Positions 32 through 7,200 of a stretch of DNA of 64,000 nt are shown here, piece by piece (within the stretch, counting starts at the first letter, position 1; every line of letters starts with the position of its first letter). The translations under genes were made by a program, and so were the position numbers. A model generated the notes under the pieces. That model had not been told where the DNA came from, ran no database searches, and was given only the letters and a program-made list of their open reading frames with translations. Location of the stretch: assembly GCF_056746865.1 (NCBI RefSeq), contig NZ_CM163382.1; one strand, written 5' to 3'.

Positions 32-767
32 TTTTTAAAGTTTTTTATCCATTATTTATTCTGATTAATAATCAAAATTGAAATCCTGTCTTTGAAATGT
101 AATGGCAGTGCAACAATCACTATTCAGAACAGAAATCACCTTTCTCTGCCTGAACACAATTAATCAATATATCCCAGTGACCGTTCTCTAAGCGAGCTAC
201 ACCATAATACCCAGCCAGAACCAGGGTTTTTTCTGTACAACTGATATAACCAGTGCACATTTTTACCTCGCTGGGTAAATCTGGCTGAACAACATCATCC
301 CCGATTATTTGCCACACACCATAATCAGACGTTGCCCAGACACAATTTTCATACCATACCATTTGCCTGAACGGTAAGGTTAACTCCCCCCGATGAATCA
401 TCTTCCATTGATCTTTTCGACCTTTAAATACAGTACCGCTTTGCGCACCGATATAAACATAGCCATCCTGACCACAACAGATAGATTCAATGAGCATGTT
501 GCTGGGAAAATGAATTTGCCTCCATTCATCACCATCGAAATTCCAGACATCTCCTTTACCGCCTGCGGCATAGATATCATTTTCAGAGAAGCCATCCACA
601 CAACTAAAACCAGCAGCATCCAGGAATAGCATCTGTTCACGGATTGTTTTAATTTCATCTTGCGCAGGGAGATGGATACCTTTATTTAGTTTCTCCCAAT
701 TATTTCTATCTATCCTGCGAACAACACTACGTGCGGATCCTACAACATACAATCGATGGATTTGCCC

Positions 768-1673
768 CTATATTTCCAGACACCTGTTATCACTTAACCC
801 ATTACTGGCCCGCTGCCGTAGATATTCCCGTGGCGAGCGATAACCCAGTGCACTATGCGGATGCCATTCGTTATAATGCTCGAACGCCTCTGCAAGGTTC
901 TTTGCTGCCGTTAACCCGTCTGGTTTAGGCATGATACTGATGTAGTCACGCTTTATCGTTTTCACGAAGCTCTCTGCTATGCCGTTACTCTCCGGACTCC
1001 GCACCGCCGTGTTCTTCGGTTCAAGCCCCAACATCCGGGCAAACTGCCGTGTTTCATTAGCCCGGTAGCATGAACCATTATCCGTCAGCCACTCTACTGG
1101 AGACGCCGGAAGCTCGTTGCCGAAGCGGCGTTCCACCGCTCCCAGCATTACGTCCTGTACTGTTTCACTGTCGAAGCCGCCCGTAGTGACTGCCCAGTGC
1201 AGTGCCTCACGGTCACAGCAGTCCAGCGCGAACGTGACTCGCAGTTTTTCTCCGTTATCACAGCGGAACTCGAACCCGTCAGAGCACCATCGTTGATTGC
1301 TTTCTTTCACGGCCACTTTGCCAGTATGTGCCCGTTTCGATGGCGGTACAGCGGTTTTTCGCTCAAGCAACAGCGCATTCTGGCGCATGATCCGGTAAAC
1401 ACGTTTGGCATTGATCGCAGGCATACCATCAAGTTCGGCCTGTCTGCGAAGCAGCGCCCATACCCGACGATAACCATACGTGGGCAGCTCTCCGATAACA
1501 TGGTGTATACGGAGAAGCACATCCGTATCATCTGAGTGACGGCTGCGGCGACCATCTTTCCAGTCATCGGTTCGTCTGAGAATGACGTGCAACTGCGCAC
1601 GCGACACCCGGAGACAACGGCTGACTAAGCTTACTCCCCATCCCCGGGCAATAAGGGCGCGTGCGCTATCCAC
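768..1673 (-). CDS. insD: IS2 transposase OrfB (InsD)
   Basis: 301-aa ORF recognised as IS2 InsD (ends ...[31 protein letters not shown]); integrase catalytic core. Confidence 0.9.
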
Positions 1674-1996
1674 TTTTTTGCACGCCCGTATTCAACGGCT
1701 TCTTTAAGGAGTTCATTTTCCATCGTTTTTTTGCCGAGCAGGCGCTGGAGTTCTTTAATCTGCTTCATGGCAGCAGCAAGTTCAGAGGCAGGAACGACCT
1801 GCTCTCCTGCGGCCACAGCAGTAAGACTTCCCTCCTGGTATTGCTTGCGCCAGAGAAATAACTGGCTGGCTGCCACACCGTGTTGCCGGGCAACAAGGGA
1901 GACCGTCATTCCCGGTTCAAAACTCTGCTGAACAATAGCGATCTTTTCCTGTGTAGTACGCCGTCTGCGTTTCTCCGGTCCTAAGACATCAATCAT
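1631..1996 (-). CDS. insC: IS2 OrfA (InsC), helix-turn-helix protein
   Basis: ORF contains [56 protein letters not shown]; start placed at the internal Met matching the 121-aa InsC; overlaps insD as expected for a frameshift-fused transposase. Confidence 0.85.
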
Positions 1997-2497
1997 CTGC
2001 TCTCCAATGACTAGTCTAAAAACTAGTATTAAGACTATCACTTATTTAAGTGATATTGGTTGTCTGGAGATTCAGGGGGCCAGTCTAATCGACCACCAAT
2101 AGTCCGGGTATTGCTAATGGCAAATTCATATGGGATCGGTTCTTCAAGCCCTTCAAAACCACTACCTATAGCAAAAACCTCATTTTCCATTGTAACGCCC
2201 ACGTACTGACTGAATGGAATACTGGTTGTAGCCGAAAATATCTTGTCCATTCCTTCATAACCGCTGTATCCCCATTGCTCTCCTAATGGTTCATCAAAAA
2301 AAAAGGAAACAAAATTTTTTCTTGCCAGATGTTCTTCCATTACAGGGTCTATATCATCTCGCTTTTCTCGTGTAGTTATATAAATATAACCAGTGTCTCT
2401 TACTGCAACACCATTAATATAAAACCCTTTGAATATTTCATTGTACTCATCTTGAGTAATAATCATGTTTTTAATCTCATATTATTTTCATTTGTTT

Positions 2498-2812
2498 TTA
2501 CTGGAGTAAGAGTATGGACGGGATTGTTTTCCACCCATGCCCTTTCTGGAATCCCGGTGTCGCCGGAACATTCCCTTCACTGGTAGAGAAATACGAGCGA
2601 TCTTTCTGTGCCACCATCGACTTACAGATAAATACGGTAGCTGTTCCGTTCTGCAAATCCCGGGCATACGCCGTGTTGGAATAAGGCACAACGACCGGGC
2701 CTGTGGGCGGAGGAGGAGGGGACCAGCAGGGATCGGGAAATGCGCCAGCAGATTTCCCGTCAGACGCTCTGGAGCAGGCTTCCCGCCCGTTGATATAAAC
2801 GTTAGTTTCCAT
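2498..2812 (-). CDS. Hypothetical small ORF (104 aa, proline-rich) between paralog B and paralog A
   Basis: ORF ends 31 bp upstream of the paralog A start; its first codons (METNVY) lie in the conserved repeat downstream of B and C; the remainder is a GC-rich segment absent from the C-to-B spacer; coding status uncertain. Confidence 0.25.
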   Translation of the reverse strand: METNVYINGREACSRASDGKSAGAFPDPCWSPPPPPTGPVVVPYSNTAYARDLQNGTATVFICKSMVAQKDRSYFSTSEGNVPATPGFQKGHGWKTIPSILLLQ

Positions 2813-3365
2813 AATGTGCTATCCGTGTACCCACTTTCCTTTAAATTAACTGCTGGCCCGGGAGGCTATTCAAACGCCATTGAATCAAAGAGGACATTCC
2901 AGGCATTACCATCATAAATAGCAGCTCCTCTGGAGCCACAAACCATCATCACTGTCCCATCGGGGGAAACATCAATTCTTTTACTTAAAACGGCCACTTC
3001 AGGAGGGACGGGTTTATGTTTTGCATGCATGGCGAGCACCAGTTTGTCATCTTCCAGTACCCAGATGCCATAATCACTGGCACACCAGAGACGTCCATCA
3101 AACCATCCCATGTCGAGGAAAGGCATGGTCATTCCACCATGCGTAATTTGTGTCCATTGCTCATTGCGACCCTTCCATATAGCACCGTCAAAATCAGCAA
3201 TATAAACAAATCCGTCACCGGCACAGCAAACTGTGTACAGAAGTTTATTTGTCGGAAAAGGGAGTTTTTTCCATTGCTCACCATTAAAGTGATAAACGGT
3301 TCCCGTTCCACCCACTGCATACATATCTGACTCGGAAAAACCAGATAAATCCTGAAATAAGCTTC
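2796..3365. repeat. Direct repeat copy 1, about 570 bp: 3' half of paralog B plus about 70 bp of its 3' flank
   Basis: Near-identical to 3943..4512 (a handful of mismatches); repeat spacing 1147 bp. Confidence 0.85.
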
Positions 3366-3906
3366 TGGACATCGACTCAGCCTTCCGTTCCAGGAATCCA
3401 TCGGGAACAGGAATAGTTTGTGAAGCATCCAGCCAAACCTGATGATTAATTCGTTTATATATTCTTAACCCTCCCCCAATTGCATAGACACTTGTTCCTA
3501 CTCTGACTACCTTAATTATAGCTGTTCTCATGTCTGAGGATTTAGAAATAGGAATATCCAGATTATTTTCTCGTCCCTTGTATTCTCTGGTTTTGTAGCT
3601 TATGACTTCACAGTCGATATCAACTATAACTAATTCAGTTTGGGAAGGTGACCATCCAGCCGATATCGTTGGATAGCTCAAATTACCGAAAGACATCCCA
3701 AACACCCTGTTTTCAGGAGGGTTGTCAATAACTATTGATACCAGCTTGTGTTTAGGCATGTAATAGTCGTTGCCATATTCGATATGATTTTCATCAATTT
3801 TTTCAATTAATAATAAGCCAACGCGGCCATGTTCAAAGCCATATGTACAATCATATACTTCAAAATTTTTAAAGGTTTTATCCCAACGTTCTTGACTAAT
3901 AATCAT
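2866..3906 (-). CDS. Hypothetical protein, paralog B (346 aa) with beta-propeller-like repeats resembling BNR/Ycf48 or Kelch blades
   Basis: Intact 346-aa ORF; the C-terminal ~155-160 aa (from DLSGFSESDMYAVGG) are identical to paralog C, the N-terminal half about 60 percent identical; repeated blade-like motifs (YAIGGG...W, YAVGGTGTVYHFNGEQW, FDGAIWKGRNEQW, YDGNAW). Confidence 0.75.
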   Translation of the reverse strand: MIISQERWDKTFKNFEVYDCTYGFEHGRVGLLLIEKIDENHIEYGNDYYMPKHKLVSIVIDNPPENRVFGMSFGNLSYPTISAGWSPSQTELVIVDIDCEVISYKTREYKGRENNLDIPISKSSDMRTAIIKVVRVGTSVYAIGGGLRIYKRINHQVWLDASQTIPVPDGFLERKAESMSRSLFQDLSGFSESDMYAVGGTGTVYHFNGEQWKKLPFPTNKLLYTVCCAGDGFVYIADFDGAIWKGRNEQWTQITHGGMTMPFLDMGWFDGRLWCASDYGIWVLEDDKLVLAMHAKHKPVPPEVAVLSKRIDVSPDGTVMMVCGSRGAAIYDGNAWNVLFDSMAFE

Positions 3907-3942
3907 TTCATTTCCTTAGTTATCACAATTATCATCATAGCT

Positions 3943-4512
3943 ATCTATAAACGTTAGTTTCCATAATATGCTATCCGTGTGCCCACTTTCCTTTAAATTA
4001 ACTGCTGGCCCGGGAGGCTATTCAAACGCCATTGAATCAAAGAGGACATTCCAGGCATTACCATCATAAATAGCAGCTCCTCTGGAACCACAAACCATCA
4101 TCACGGTCCCATCGGGTGAAACATCAATTCTTTTACTTAAAACGGCCACTTCAGGAGGGACGGGTTTATGTTTTGCATGCATGGCAAGCACCAGTTTGTC
4201 ATCTTCCAGCACCCAGATGCCATAATCACTGGCACACCAGAGACGTCCATCAAACCATCCCATGTCGAGGAATGGCATGGTCATTCCACCATGCGTAATT
4301 TGTGTCCATTGTTCATTGCGACCCTTCCATATAGCACCGTCAAAATCAGCAATATAAACAAATCCGTCACCGGCACAGCAAACTGTGTACAGAAGTTTAT
4401 TTGTCGGAAAAGGGAGTTGTTTCCATTGCTCACCATTAAAGTGATAAACCGTTCCCGTTCCGCCCACTGCATACATATCCGATTCGGAAAAACCAGATAA
4501 ATCTCGGAATCG
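3943..4512. repeat. Direct repeat copy 2, about 570 bp: 3' half of paralog C plus its 3' flank
   Basis: Near-identical to 2796..3365. Confidence 0.85.
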
Positions 4513-5058
4513 ACTTCTGGTTATTGCTTCTACCTTCCTATCTAACAATCCATCGGGGACAGGCAGGTATGTAGAATGTTCCCGCCAAATTTGGTGATCA
4601 ACACGTTTGTATATTCTGAAACCACTACCGATAGCGTAAACACTGTTTTCAATTCGTACTACTTTTATTATAACGGAAAACATATCGATAGAACCTGGTA
4701 TGAGTATATTTATACTTTCTTCTACTCCTTTGTATACATCTTCTTTATAACTCATAACATCACGGTCCTGACTGACCATAACATATTCGGTCTGAGATGG
4801 GGGCCAACCAGAAGATATAGTCATCAGAGATATCCCTGTTGCGCGACGACCATATATGCGATATTTTTTGGAGAGGGTAAACGTAATGGAAATTAATCTC
4901 TTTTCAGGTGGGTAAAAAGGGTTTTCATATTCGGCATGCTCCTCATCTACCACTTCAATCAATGAAAGACCTACTTTTCCATGCTCGTAACCATAGGTGC
5001 AGTCATATATATAAAAGCCTTTGAGATATTTCTGATACGATTCTATATCTATGATCAT
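4018..5058 (-). CDS. Hypothetical protein, paralog C (346 aa) with beta-propeller-like repeats
   Basis: Intact 346-aa ORF; C-terminal half identical to paralog B, N-terminal half diverged; low GC. Confidence 0.75.
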   Translation of the reverse strand: MIIDIESYQKYLKGFYIYDCTYGYEHGKVGLSLIEVVDEEHAEYENPFYPPEKRLISITFTLSKKYRIYGRRATGISLMTISSGWPPSQTEYVMVSQDRDVMSYKEDVYKGVEESINILIPGSIDMFSVIIKVVRIENSVYAIGSGFRIYKRVDHQIWREHSTYLPVPDGLLDRKVEAITRSRFRDLSGFSESDMYAVGGTGTVYHFNGEQWKQLPFPTNKLLYTVCCAGDGFVYIADFDGAIWKGRNEQWTQITHGGMTMPFLDMGWFDGRLWCASDYGIWVLEDDKLVLAMHAKHKPVPPEVAVLSKRIDVSPDGTVMMVCGSRGAAIYDGNAWNVLFDSMAFE

Positions 5059-5083
5059 TTATCACCTCAAATATCTTCATCGT

Positions 5084-5383
5084 TTATAACACCCCCATCA
5101 CCTGCATTGATTTTTGCAGAGTTAAATCACCACAGGTATAAGCGTCTTGGTAAGCTTTATCCAGTTGCGCTTTCAAACAAGATTTATCACAACCGTACAT
5201 TAATGCAACCTCATCAATTACCATACATCTGGCATCTTTATAACTCATTTCTTTTCCAAAATGCTTTTCTTCTATTAGAGTGCCTGTAGCTGAGTGTAAT
5301 GCACCATGTGAACCAGTACGATTGTCTTTTCCTTCCAGACAAATTGTAGGCGCTTTGCCTTCGGTATATTCCCCCCCCAGCAC
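5084..5383 (-). CDS. Hypothetical small protein (99 aa), tightly coupled upstream of paralog C
   Basis: ORF ends 26 bp before the paralog C start; GTG start codon inferred; a run of 8 G on the coding strand sits at codons 3-5; no recognisable homology. Confidence 0.35.
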   Translation of the reverse strand: MLGGEYTEGKAPTICLEGKDNRTGSHGALHSATGTLIEEKHFGKEMSYKDARCMVIDEVALMYGCDKSCLKAQLDKAYQDAYTCGDLTLQKSMQVMGVL

Positions 5384-5751
5384 TTTCTTGTTGGATATTT
5401 GCTACGGGGCATTCTTTATATTAATTTTTCTTCCTTATGGAGTATCTCTGTTTGACACTTTAAAGTCTCTATGAGAATTATAAGATTTTTTTTAAAATAA
5501 TACGTTTTCAGATTTAGCAACAGGATTTTCACTCATACGATTAATATACGATATTTTAATCTCAAAAATATATTTGGCTGGTGAAGCTATCTGGGGTGTA
5601 TATTCACACCACATATATTATCAAAAGGCAGTTACGCTACCGCCATACCCTGATAAAACTCACCATCTGCACGAAACGGATTTTACGCTTTTTCTTCCGG
5701 CGAAATATCAAATTCTCAATTCAAATAATATCTATTGCGTTATATGACCTA

Positions 5752-7200
5752 TCACTCCCTCTCCGGCAGCACAATCACAAACCTTGTTCCTCGCGCATCT
5801 GACGTTACCGCAACTGTGCCTTTATGCGCGACAACAATCGATTTCACTATCGCCAGCCCAATGCCGCTACCTTCGCCTTTTCGCTGGCGGGAAGGATCAA
5901 CGCGGTAGAAACGGTCAAACAATCGCGGTAAGTGTTCGGGCGCAATGGGCGTACCGGGGTTTTCGACGGTAACTTGCACCTGATGATCGACCGCCTGGCA
6001 GCGTACTACAATAGCCTCTCCGGGTGGCGTATAACGCAGGGCATTAGAAAGCAGGTTGTTTAACGCCCGACGCAGCATCAGCGGATCGCCCGCAACCTGA
6101 CACTCGTCACCAACAAACCGCAACTCCACGCCGCGATCTTCCGCTAACGCCTCGAAAAAATCGAACACTTTGCCGACTTCATCCGCCAGGTTGAGCATTT
6201 TCTTTTCGGGGATTAACTGGTTGTTATCGGCCTGGGCGAGAAACAACATATCGCTGACCATTTTCGCCATTCGCGTCAGCTCTTCGAGATTAGAGTAGAG
6301 CACATCTTCCAGCTCCTTCTGGCTGCGTGACTGGCTGAGGGCGATTTCGGTTTGCGTTATGAGATTCGTAATTGGTGTACGAATTTCGTGAGCGATATCC
6401 GCTGAGAAATTGGACTGGCGAGTAAAGACATCCTCAATACGCTCGATCATATGGTTGAACGACAGTACCAGCTGTTCCAGCTCAATCGGCACGGTCTGCG
6501 GGTCAAGGCGAACGTCGAGATCTTTCGAGGTGATATTCTGGATTTGACGGCTGACGCTGCGGATCGGCGCGTGACCTTTATGTACCGCCAATAGCACGAT
6601 AAAGACGATCAGGATGCTGATGATCGATGCGGTCATAATAAGTTTATTCATCAAATCATTTATGTAATGAAGATGAAAATCGATCGAAAGCGCGATGTAG
6701 AGCGTATAAATCGGTTTGCCGTCCACCAACGGGCCAACCGGCAAGTTAATCATCCGCCAGTTGCTGTGTTCCATATGCCCGTGACCGTGGCCCGGCATCA
6801 TCATTGTCGGGCCGGAAAGGAGATACACCTCGCCGCCCCGCGCGTCTTTATCGGGTATGGCATCACGTGCAAACTCGCGGATATCGGGCGCACCGGGGGA
6901 GTGATATACCGTTTTACCGTGGCTATCTGCCAGGGAGATCAACACATTGGAATAACCACTGACAATATCTTCCAGCGTCATTAAGCGTCGGGCTTGCGTT
7001 TCGTCAGGGTGATTAAGTACCCGTTCAAGTGTGGCGCTAATTTCTTTTAAATCATTAATATCCTGCTCGGCAAAATGCACTTTTACCGAGTGGATCATTA
7101 TCCATGCAAAGGCGAAAAACGCCGCGATGGTGGCGAGGCTGATAAAAAAGGTCAGGCGGGTTGCCAGCGAAAACGGGCGCTGAAATGGCTTACTGACCAT
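5752..7200 (-). CDS. cusS: Copper/silver-sensing histidine kinase CusS
   Basis: Translation matches CusS ([16 protein letters not shown]...; periplasmic sensor, HAMP, HisKA and ATPase regions); start set at the internal Met of the 486-aa ORF. Confidence 0.92.

Follow-up and report, generated by a model that had tools for sequence, protein, structure and literature searches.

A 104-codon PAAR-like reading frame in an Escherichia coli orphan immunity islet is very probably the deletion scar of a type VI secretion effector gene

We analysed a 64,000-nucleotide (nt) stretch of DNA (contig NZ_CM163382.1 of NCBI RefSeq assembly GCF_056746865.1), referred to below as the window, in which three related genes, paralogs C, B and A, follow one another on the minus strand. 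The spacer between paralogs B and A (2467-2865, read on the minus strand) holds a 104-codon open reading frame (ORF; 2498-2812, minus strand), which is very probably the inactivated deletion scar of a type VI secretion system (T6SS) effector gene, situated in an orphan immunity islet. The parent effector would have carried an N-terminal PAAR-like (DUF4150) domain seated on the VgrG spike and, joined to it through a helical linker, a Tox-GHH2 nuclease at the C-terminus. An internal deletion of approximately 1.25 kb would have joined codon 91 to the last ~17 codons (~50 nt) in the wrong frame, at a microhomology of 1-2 nt of G, leaving a product with about 58% of the PAAR-like domain, no linker, no nuclease and 13 nonsense residues at its end. 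Paralog A, immediately downstream, would be the cognate immunity gene, retained as an orphan. The neighbouring module would have been cut to 19 nt from the 5' end of its effector gene and 39 nt from the 3' end, the scar between paralogs C and B, and the islet as a whole would represent the decay of an effector-immunity array of the type that follows vgrG-DUF2169 in Citrobacter, Salmonella and some E. coli. This interpretation is carried by direct observation of the domain identity and its truncation, of a two-part homology with an abutting breakpoint, of a frameshift, of colinearity with relatives, and of a guanine-plus-cytosine (GC) contrast in the parent genes.

The ORF matches the Pfam family PF13665, Tox-PAAR-like (DUF4150), with 44.8 bits and E 1.5e-11, against a gathering cut-off of 31 bits, over profile positions 4-63 of 108. 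The domain is incomplete, with positions 64-108 (about 42% of the domain) gone, and Pfam finds no Tox-GHH2 match in the ORF. Intact relatives match PF13665 over profile positions 4-106 at 93-95 bits, and carry Tox-GHH2 in addition. In alignments the ORF follows the family to approximately residue 91 and then departs from it; the block IKGKAYF...EGLNVCRHxDPMTHNH, present in all full-length homologues whether stand-alone or fused, is absent, and the residue corresponding to E82, nearly invariant in the family, is V. Twelve of the 104 residues are proline, as the first-pass annotation of this DNA had noted in calling the ORF proline-rich, and the PPPPP run forms part of a family-wide PDPCWSPPPP motif. 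Protein homologues of the ORF reach E 1e-65. The protein search returned complete stand-alone DUF4150 proteins of 128-129 amino acids (aa) together with truncated fragments from E. coli, Citrobacter and Salmonella. The stand-alone proteins (P0007-P0020) share a METxVYxN...PDPCWSPPPP start and are common in metagenome contigs.

The intact relatives are T6SS effectors of 526-547 aa in which a linker connects the PAAR-like domain to a Tox-GHH2 nuclease. Behind each comes an immunity gene of ~340 codons belonging to the same family as paralogs A, B and C, and their genomic context includes vgrG and a DUF2169 adaptor. The 526-aa and 531-aa genes come from a Citrobacter freundii contig (L005, with tox526) and from Salmonella contigs (L007 and L008; tox531). 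A distant DNA search additionally identified PAAR-like-GHH2 genes of 542-547 aa in the vgrG islands of E. coli strains A16 and 2017-02-2CC, downstream of which 'WD40/YVTN/BNR-like' proteins of ~340 aa, members of the paralog family, are encoded. Tox-GHH2 occupies the C-terminus of tox526, tox531, PAAR542 and PAAR547. Over its first 91 residues the ORF is 87-89% identical at the amino-acid level to the intact 526-538-aa toxins. The first-pass annotation had recommended nucleotide and translated searches for a parent gene, and had regarded a lack of homology to any longer gene, together with a lack of expression, as the mark of a spurious ORF; these searches recovered the parent family, and the homology to its 526-547-aa genes is clear.

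The position of the deletion can be read to within one or two nucleotides. By blastn, window 2813-2541 aligns to L005 1885-2157, which is the first 273 nt of tox526, at 80.6% identity, and window 2541-2090 aligns to L005 3407-3855, covering the last 60 nt of tox526 and the start of the following 336-aa gene, at 74%. The two matches abut at one position in the window and are distant from each other in L005; thus, about 1250 nt of the parent have been deleted. The spacer accordingly contains 272 nt of effector 5' end (codons 1-91; 2541-2812, minus strand), which carry the PF13665 match, and an effector 3' end (2467-2540, minus strand), assigned from the 74% nucleotide match and from a comparison of reading frames. 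At the junction (2541/2540), CAGAAAGG is followed directly by GCATGGG, with an ambiguity of 1-2 nt of G.

The frame comparison identifies the ORF as a chimaera. In the +1 frame the tail reads GMGGKQSRPYSYSSKNK-stop, to be compared with the tox526 C-terminus SGMGGKQSRPFPYKTGKNSK-stop, and scores 61 against it; the other two frames score 16 and 24. In the frame of the ORF the tail reads HGWKTIPSILLLQ-stop, ending at a TAA at 2498-2500. Since only the +1 frame matches the toxin C-terminus, the 13 residues at positions 92-104 of the ORF (HGWKTIPSILLLQ), attached to effector residues 1-91, are read out of frame. The ancestral effector stop codon, TGA, is found at 2488-2490, 21 nt before the start codon of paralog A. 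A Logan contig (L004, from SRR19656627; positions 48-320) carries a variant of the scar with an extra 75-nt deletion corresponding to window 2536-2610, which restores a different frame and yields 90 aa. This variant had suggested +2 as the ancestral frame of the tail, a candidate that was rejected on the +1 match of the C. freundii toxin C-terminus; the variant, being a secondary deletion, was set aside as a guide to frame. Other E. coli alleles in the protein database (P0002-P0004, P0008 and P0021) are frameshifted or altered at the C-terminus, with one truncated form of 63 aa. The tail of P0002 is what we take to be the translated end of IS1.

Gene order points to paralog A as the partner of the lost effector. 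The remnant would stem from paralog A's own cognate effector, because a toxin homologue lies directly upstream of the paralog A homologue in both C. freundii and Salmonella. Paralog A is 79% identical in amino acids to the 336-aa C. freundii gene directly downstream of tox526, and the Salmonella contig shows the same gene order, with tox531, imm346, a tox526-like fragment and a paralog A homologue.

Base composition had been the reason given for regarding the segment as foreign. The GC content of the ORF is 0.54, and that of its 272 homologous nucleotides 0.55, against 0.38-0.42 in the paralogs. The description of the segment as GC-rich therefore stands relative to its AT-rich neighbours and only relative to them, because the mean of the window is 0.516. 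In six intact relatives, the first 273 nt of the toxin gene have a GC content of 0.49-0.54 and the rest of the gene 0.34-0.41; four immunity genes scored in the relatives fall at 0.31-0.42. The higher GC content is a property of the gene family, in which a conserved delivery domain stands beside variable, AT-rich toxin and immunity parts. Since the same step occurs inside intact parent genes, the contrast is no sign of foreign capture.

Among 5426 complete E. coli genomes, 153 carry DNA at least 99% identical to the ORF, in each case on the chromosome. Every one of these carriers has the scar, and an intact effector next to paralog A was found in none of the 5426 genomes. Each carrier has a single matching place in the DNA search, and thus, at the DNA level, another related PAAR-like gene cannot be detected in them. 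On the branch to the window copy we counted 22 synonymous and 9 non-synonymous substitutions, a count in which the E. coli copy stands as outgroup to three intact genes and changes before and after the deletion are not separable.

Several observations weigh against the interpretation as a scar. The start codon has been kept, the ORF is open in about 152 genomes, and RefSeq lists it as an ordinary coding sequence (CDS; WP_001305541.1, 'PAAR-like domain-containing protein'). No intact parent closer than ~80% nucleotide identity was found, in searches in which contigs were not scanned with paralog A; with the closest parent at ~80%, the deleted length and the junction microhomology are read from a relative and not from the true ancestor. 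An AlphaFold2 model of the complete PAAR-like domain, built from a 16-sequence alignment, was unusable (predicted local distance difference test 32, predicted template modelling score 0.18), and a PDB sequence search with the intact PAAR-like domain gave no match. The persistence of the open ORF says little about selection, since the carrier genomes are at least 99% identical at this locus.

The spacer between paralogs C and B (3907-4017) can be compared with the B-to-A spacer. The two spacers measure 111 bp and 399 bp, in line with the lengths of 111 bp and about 400 bp first given for them. Counted from the stop codon of the upstream paralog, both begin with 53 nt (2813-2865 on the minus strand between the paralog B stop and the ATG of the remnant, repeated at 3965-4017), followed by ATGGAAACTAACGTTTATA in common. 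This shared start, ATG GAA ACT AAC GTT TAT A, closes a stretch of 72 nt with two mismatches, beyond which the spacers diverge completely. The first-pass annotation had correctly recognised that both spacers start with the same codons, the long copy staying open for 104 codons and the short one stopping after 7; its reading of the short copy, METNVYR-stop, holds as sequence, at 3941-3964 instead of the 3937-3960 originally given, a 4-nt error. Upstream of the remnant ATG, the leader showed no homology to either the Citrobacter or the Salmonella loci.

Between the shared start and paralog B lies the counterpart of the effector 3' end. Window 3924-2867 aligns to positions 3838-4895 of the Salmonella contig L007, beginning 9 nt before the tox531 stop codon, and the aligned part from 3924 onwards takes in the last 9 nt of tox531 (GATAACTAA) as well as the leader of the following 346-aa gene. 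The frame in phase with the tox531 stop reads FIDSYDDNCDN-stop, probably an acidic, Asn-rich tail comparable to the ...TENKDN-stop of tox531, and 3925-3945 would on this likeness also be homologous to the effector 3' end. By these matches the C-to-B spacer is best described as a scar of the same type from which more has been removed, leaving the first 19 nt of an effector gene (ATGGAAACTAACGTTTATA; 3946-3964, minus strand; identical to 2794-2812) and a 39-nt tail (3907-3945, minus strand), the last part of which comprises a tox531-like 3' end (...GATAACTAA) and the ribosome-binding region of paralog B. A promoter-like pair, TGGAAA-18 nt-TATGAT (3934-3963, minus strand), lies across this deletion junction, with TGGAAA drawn from the first codons of the effector and TATGAT from its 3' tail; it may be due to chance. 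The scan of the region found 5 promoter-like sites against 11.3 in shuffled sequence, which is not an enrichment, and we claim no promoter.

Three other accounts of the ORF can be weighed on this evidence. That it encodes a functional short PAAR-like protein capping a VgrG spike is very improbable. The ORF does pass the Pfam gathering threshold, stand-alone DUF4150 proteins of 128-129 aa exist, and RefSeq annotates a protein; however, profile positions 64-108 and the conserved C-terminal block, kept in every full-length homologue, are gone, the last 13 residues are an out-of-frame read of a toxin 3' end, and the islet contains neither vgrG nor a DUF2169 gene. The original proposal, of a captured fragment of different origin that resembles a displaced toxin tip in an orphan array, is less probable still, and we reject it. 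It was right in its expectation of a coding origin, a longer parent and an orphan array, and it could draw on the GC contrast (0.54-0.55 against 0.38-0.42) and on the true orphan toxin tip that the islet does contain (5084-5399, discussed below). Nevertheless, the piece is not a C-terminal toxin but an N-terminal PAAR-like delivery domain, joined in the wrong frame to the 3' end of its own gene; it is colinear with paralog A's cognate effector in Citrobacter and Salmonella, where the homologous toxin gene sits directly upstream of the paralog A homologue; and its compositional step is found within the intact parents. The idea of a spurious ORF in non-coding spacer is rejected too, with next to no probability left to it. 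The ORF is short and NCBIfam gives no meaningful match for it or for the paralogs, but a Pfam E of 1.5e-11, 87-89% amino-acid identity over 91 residues to intact toxins and 22 synonymous against 9 non-synonymous codon changes would hardly be expected of it.

A more serious, though still unlikely, alternative is that the scar has been kept for use in cis, either as a leader ORF that counters Rho-dependent polarity or as a 5' homology handle for the recapture of modules. As a leader, the translated ORF may keep ribosomes on the 399-nt gap and so sustain expression of the orphan immunity gene immA. Both scars retain the effector ATG and the 3' end with the ribosome-binding region of the immunity gene, the two out-of-frame ORFs end some 30 nt short of the immunity start codon, and a terminator scan found no terminator-like site between paralogs B and A. 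Module exchange by homologous recombination in conserved regions is, furthermore, known from T6SS and Rhs arrays (PMC5361080). On the other hand, the carriers are nearly clonal at the locus and provide no selection signal, and some alleles are frameshifted, further deleted or changed at the C-terminus. With just 7 codons left in the C-to-B scar, paralog B can do without a long translated ORF in front of it; the carriers also lack, at the DNA level, another related PAAR-like gene to recombine with. If the scar were used in cis, orphan islets away from T6SS clusters would have to be seen as regulated or re-armable units and not as decaying arrays.

If, as we favour, the ORF is the inactivated remnant of an effector gene, its peptide, if made, would have neither effector nor spike function, and the remnant would be at most a transcribed leader of immA. 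WP_001305541.1, carried by about 150 complete E. coli genomes, would be better called a pseudogene fragment; it is neither to be scored as a PAAR spike protein nor taken as evidence of an active T6SS effector. The locus provides a clean, base-resolved example of the conversion of an effector-immunity array into an immunity-only islet through internal deletions, and nominates three beta-propeller-like proteins as candidate immunity factors against the Tox-GHH2 nucleases of Citrobacter, Salmonella and E. coli neighbours. Nothing here will surprise a specialist. A literature search for the accession WP_001305541.1 and for the nfrB-cusS islet found no paper.

Paralog A, an orphan immunity gene on the minus strand, is interrupted in the window: its N-terminal part (2088-2466) and its C-terminal part (120-756) are separated by a 1331-bp element (757-2087, minus strand) flanked by a target duplication, ATCGA, at 752-756 and 2088-2092. 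The element, which we take to be IS2 from its ends and proteins, was delimited from the junction sequence, InsC/InsD-type ORFs and comparison with the uninterrupted copies of paralog A in the Logan contig L004 and in strain 118UI (L001), where the gene encodes 336 aa. Paralogs B (2866-3906) and C (4018-5058), both minus-strand immunity genes of 346 aa, are respectively 76% and 69% identical in amino acids to the Salmonella imm346 directly downstream of intact tox531. They are 74% identical to one another overall, as a mosaic: the first ~540 nt are ~60% identical, and the last ~570 nt, together with the 53-nt leader and the 19 nt of effector, ~98%. This pattern suggests a recent event of recombination or gene conversion whose breakpoint lies near 3340/4490.

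Upstream of paralog C lies a 3' fragment of a Tox-GHH2 effector gene (5084-5399, minus strand) with a 99-aa ORF (5084-5383). The fragment matches Pfam PF15635 with E 8.8e-8 over profile positions 31-120 of 122, the 99-aa ORF is 74% identical in amino acids to tox531 residues 418-505, and nucleotide homology begins at 5399. These matches identify it as a true orphan toxin tip of the classical kind, which breaks off at the islet's cusS-side edge; its nuclease domain seems to lack the N-terminal part.

The islet occupies the interval from nfrB to cusS in strain 118UI, with no vgrG or DUF2169 gene in it. Read along the minus strand, it comprises the toxin tip, immC, a scar, immB, a scar, immA, and a piece of the next module's adaptor-side gene. 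This last fragment starts at window ~27 and runs off the window edge (L001 10586-10864); it corresponds to the C-terminal ~70-85 residues of a ~340-aa gene that precedes PAAR-like toxins in vgrG islands. On the C. freundii contig, a similar fragment of ~95 aa stands before each of two complete toxin genes, although the one before tox526 may instead be the end of an intact copy. The modules therefore seem, from these repeated ends, to have been copied together with the 3' end of the upstream gene. With three immunity paralogs, one toxin tip and two scars, the locus has the make-up of an orphan islet, and its sequence identifies it as a probable decayed copy of a vgrG-island effector-immunity array. 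The retained immunity genes are predicted to protect against Tox-GHH2 effectors delivered by neighbouring bacteria, because genes of the paralog family adjoin intact toxins in the relatives. The remainder of the islet in strain 118UI (L001 4946-10864) contains two copies of ISEc1 (ISAs1 family), a SUKH-3 protein and several small hypothetical genes. SUKH-3 is a known immunity-type domain, and by its gene content the nfrB-cusS locus can be considered a composite immunity islet.

The intact parents resemble published effectors. PefD of Proteus mirabilis HI4320 is a PAAR-Phasin2-Tox-GHH2 nuclease encoded in an hcp-vgrG-DUF2169 operon, followed by the 320-aa immunity protein PefE; its T6SS-dependent secretion and the neutralisation of its nuclease toxicity by the immunity protein have been published (PMC5714391). 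An orphan copy, PefE2, differs from PefE in its N-terminal region, and these differences have been linked to functional differences between the copies (PMC5714391). Likened by description and not by alignment, the architecture of the parents here is the same, and the differences between paralogs B and C are likewise concentrated in the N-terminal halves. Unlike the PefD locus, the window retains the effector as a scar of 5' and 3' ends, outside any vgrG cluster. A second relative, Tse7 of Pseudomonas aeruginosa (PA0099, with Tsi7, PA0100), is reportedly a DUF4150 PAAR-like effector with a Tox-GHH2 DNase (Pissaridou 2018, cited in PMC9635880). Its domain plan and vgrG-DUF2169 context correspond, again by description, to those of the intact relatives, whereas in the window copy the nuclease domain is absent and the PAAR-like domain incomplete. 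Judged against this PefD/Tse7 class, the ORF has an immunity gene directly downstream but no GHH2 domain and no vgrG/DUF2169 link. It is best classed as a remnant, and not a member, of the PAAR-like-Tox-GHH2 effectors, because the GHH2 domain present in the parents is missing from it.

The islet also has parallels among orphan immunity loci. Orphan immunity arrays formed by effector displacement have been described in the T6SS clusters of Vibrio cholerae (PMC5361080), and SAIDI-1 of Salmonella Typhi is a putative T6SS immunity islet (PMC7400221). These loci, like the one described here, carry immunity genes without intact effectors and with degraded remnants between them, and have been interpreted as protection against attack by non-kin. 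In contrast to them, the scar in the window keeps the 5' start, the delivery domain and the 3' end, the signature of an internal deletion, and the islet is placed between nfrB and cusS, away from T6SS genes and flanked by ISEc1 copies. Orphan toxin-tip arrays of Rhs and contact-dependent inhibition systems consist of toxin fragments with immunity genes downstream of a polymorphic toxin locus, a description that the fragment at 5084-5399 fits. Their orphan C-terminal modules keep the 3' toxin end without a start codon, whereas the 104-aa ORF comes from the other end of the gene and lacks a toxin domain.

Further scans of the region brought up nothing else. Pfam gave no match for the plus-strand ORFs 2537-2917, 2514-2684 and 2329-2586 or for the minus-strand ORF 2488-2691, and Rfam returned only a chance-level match over 2000-5800. 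In E. coli 2017-02-2CC, one PAAR-like-GHH2 effector (L002 5347-6930) is split into three annotated CDSs, a DUF4150 protein of 187 aa, a 'FlxA-like' protein of 165 aa and an HNH/EndoVII toxin-2 protein of 116 aa. These match successive parts of the intact 542-547-aa proteins, and thus represent another pseudogenised effector annotated as separate genes.

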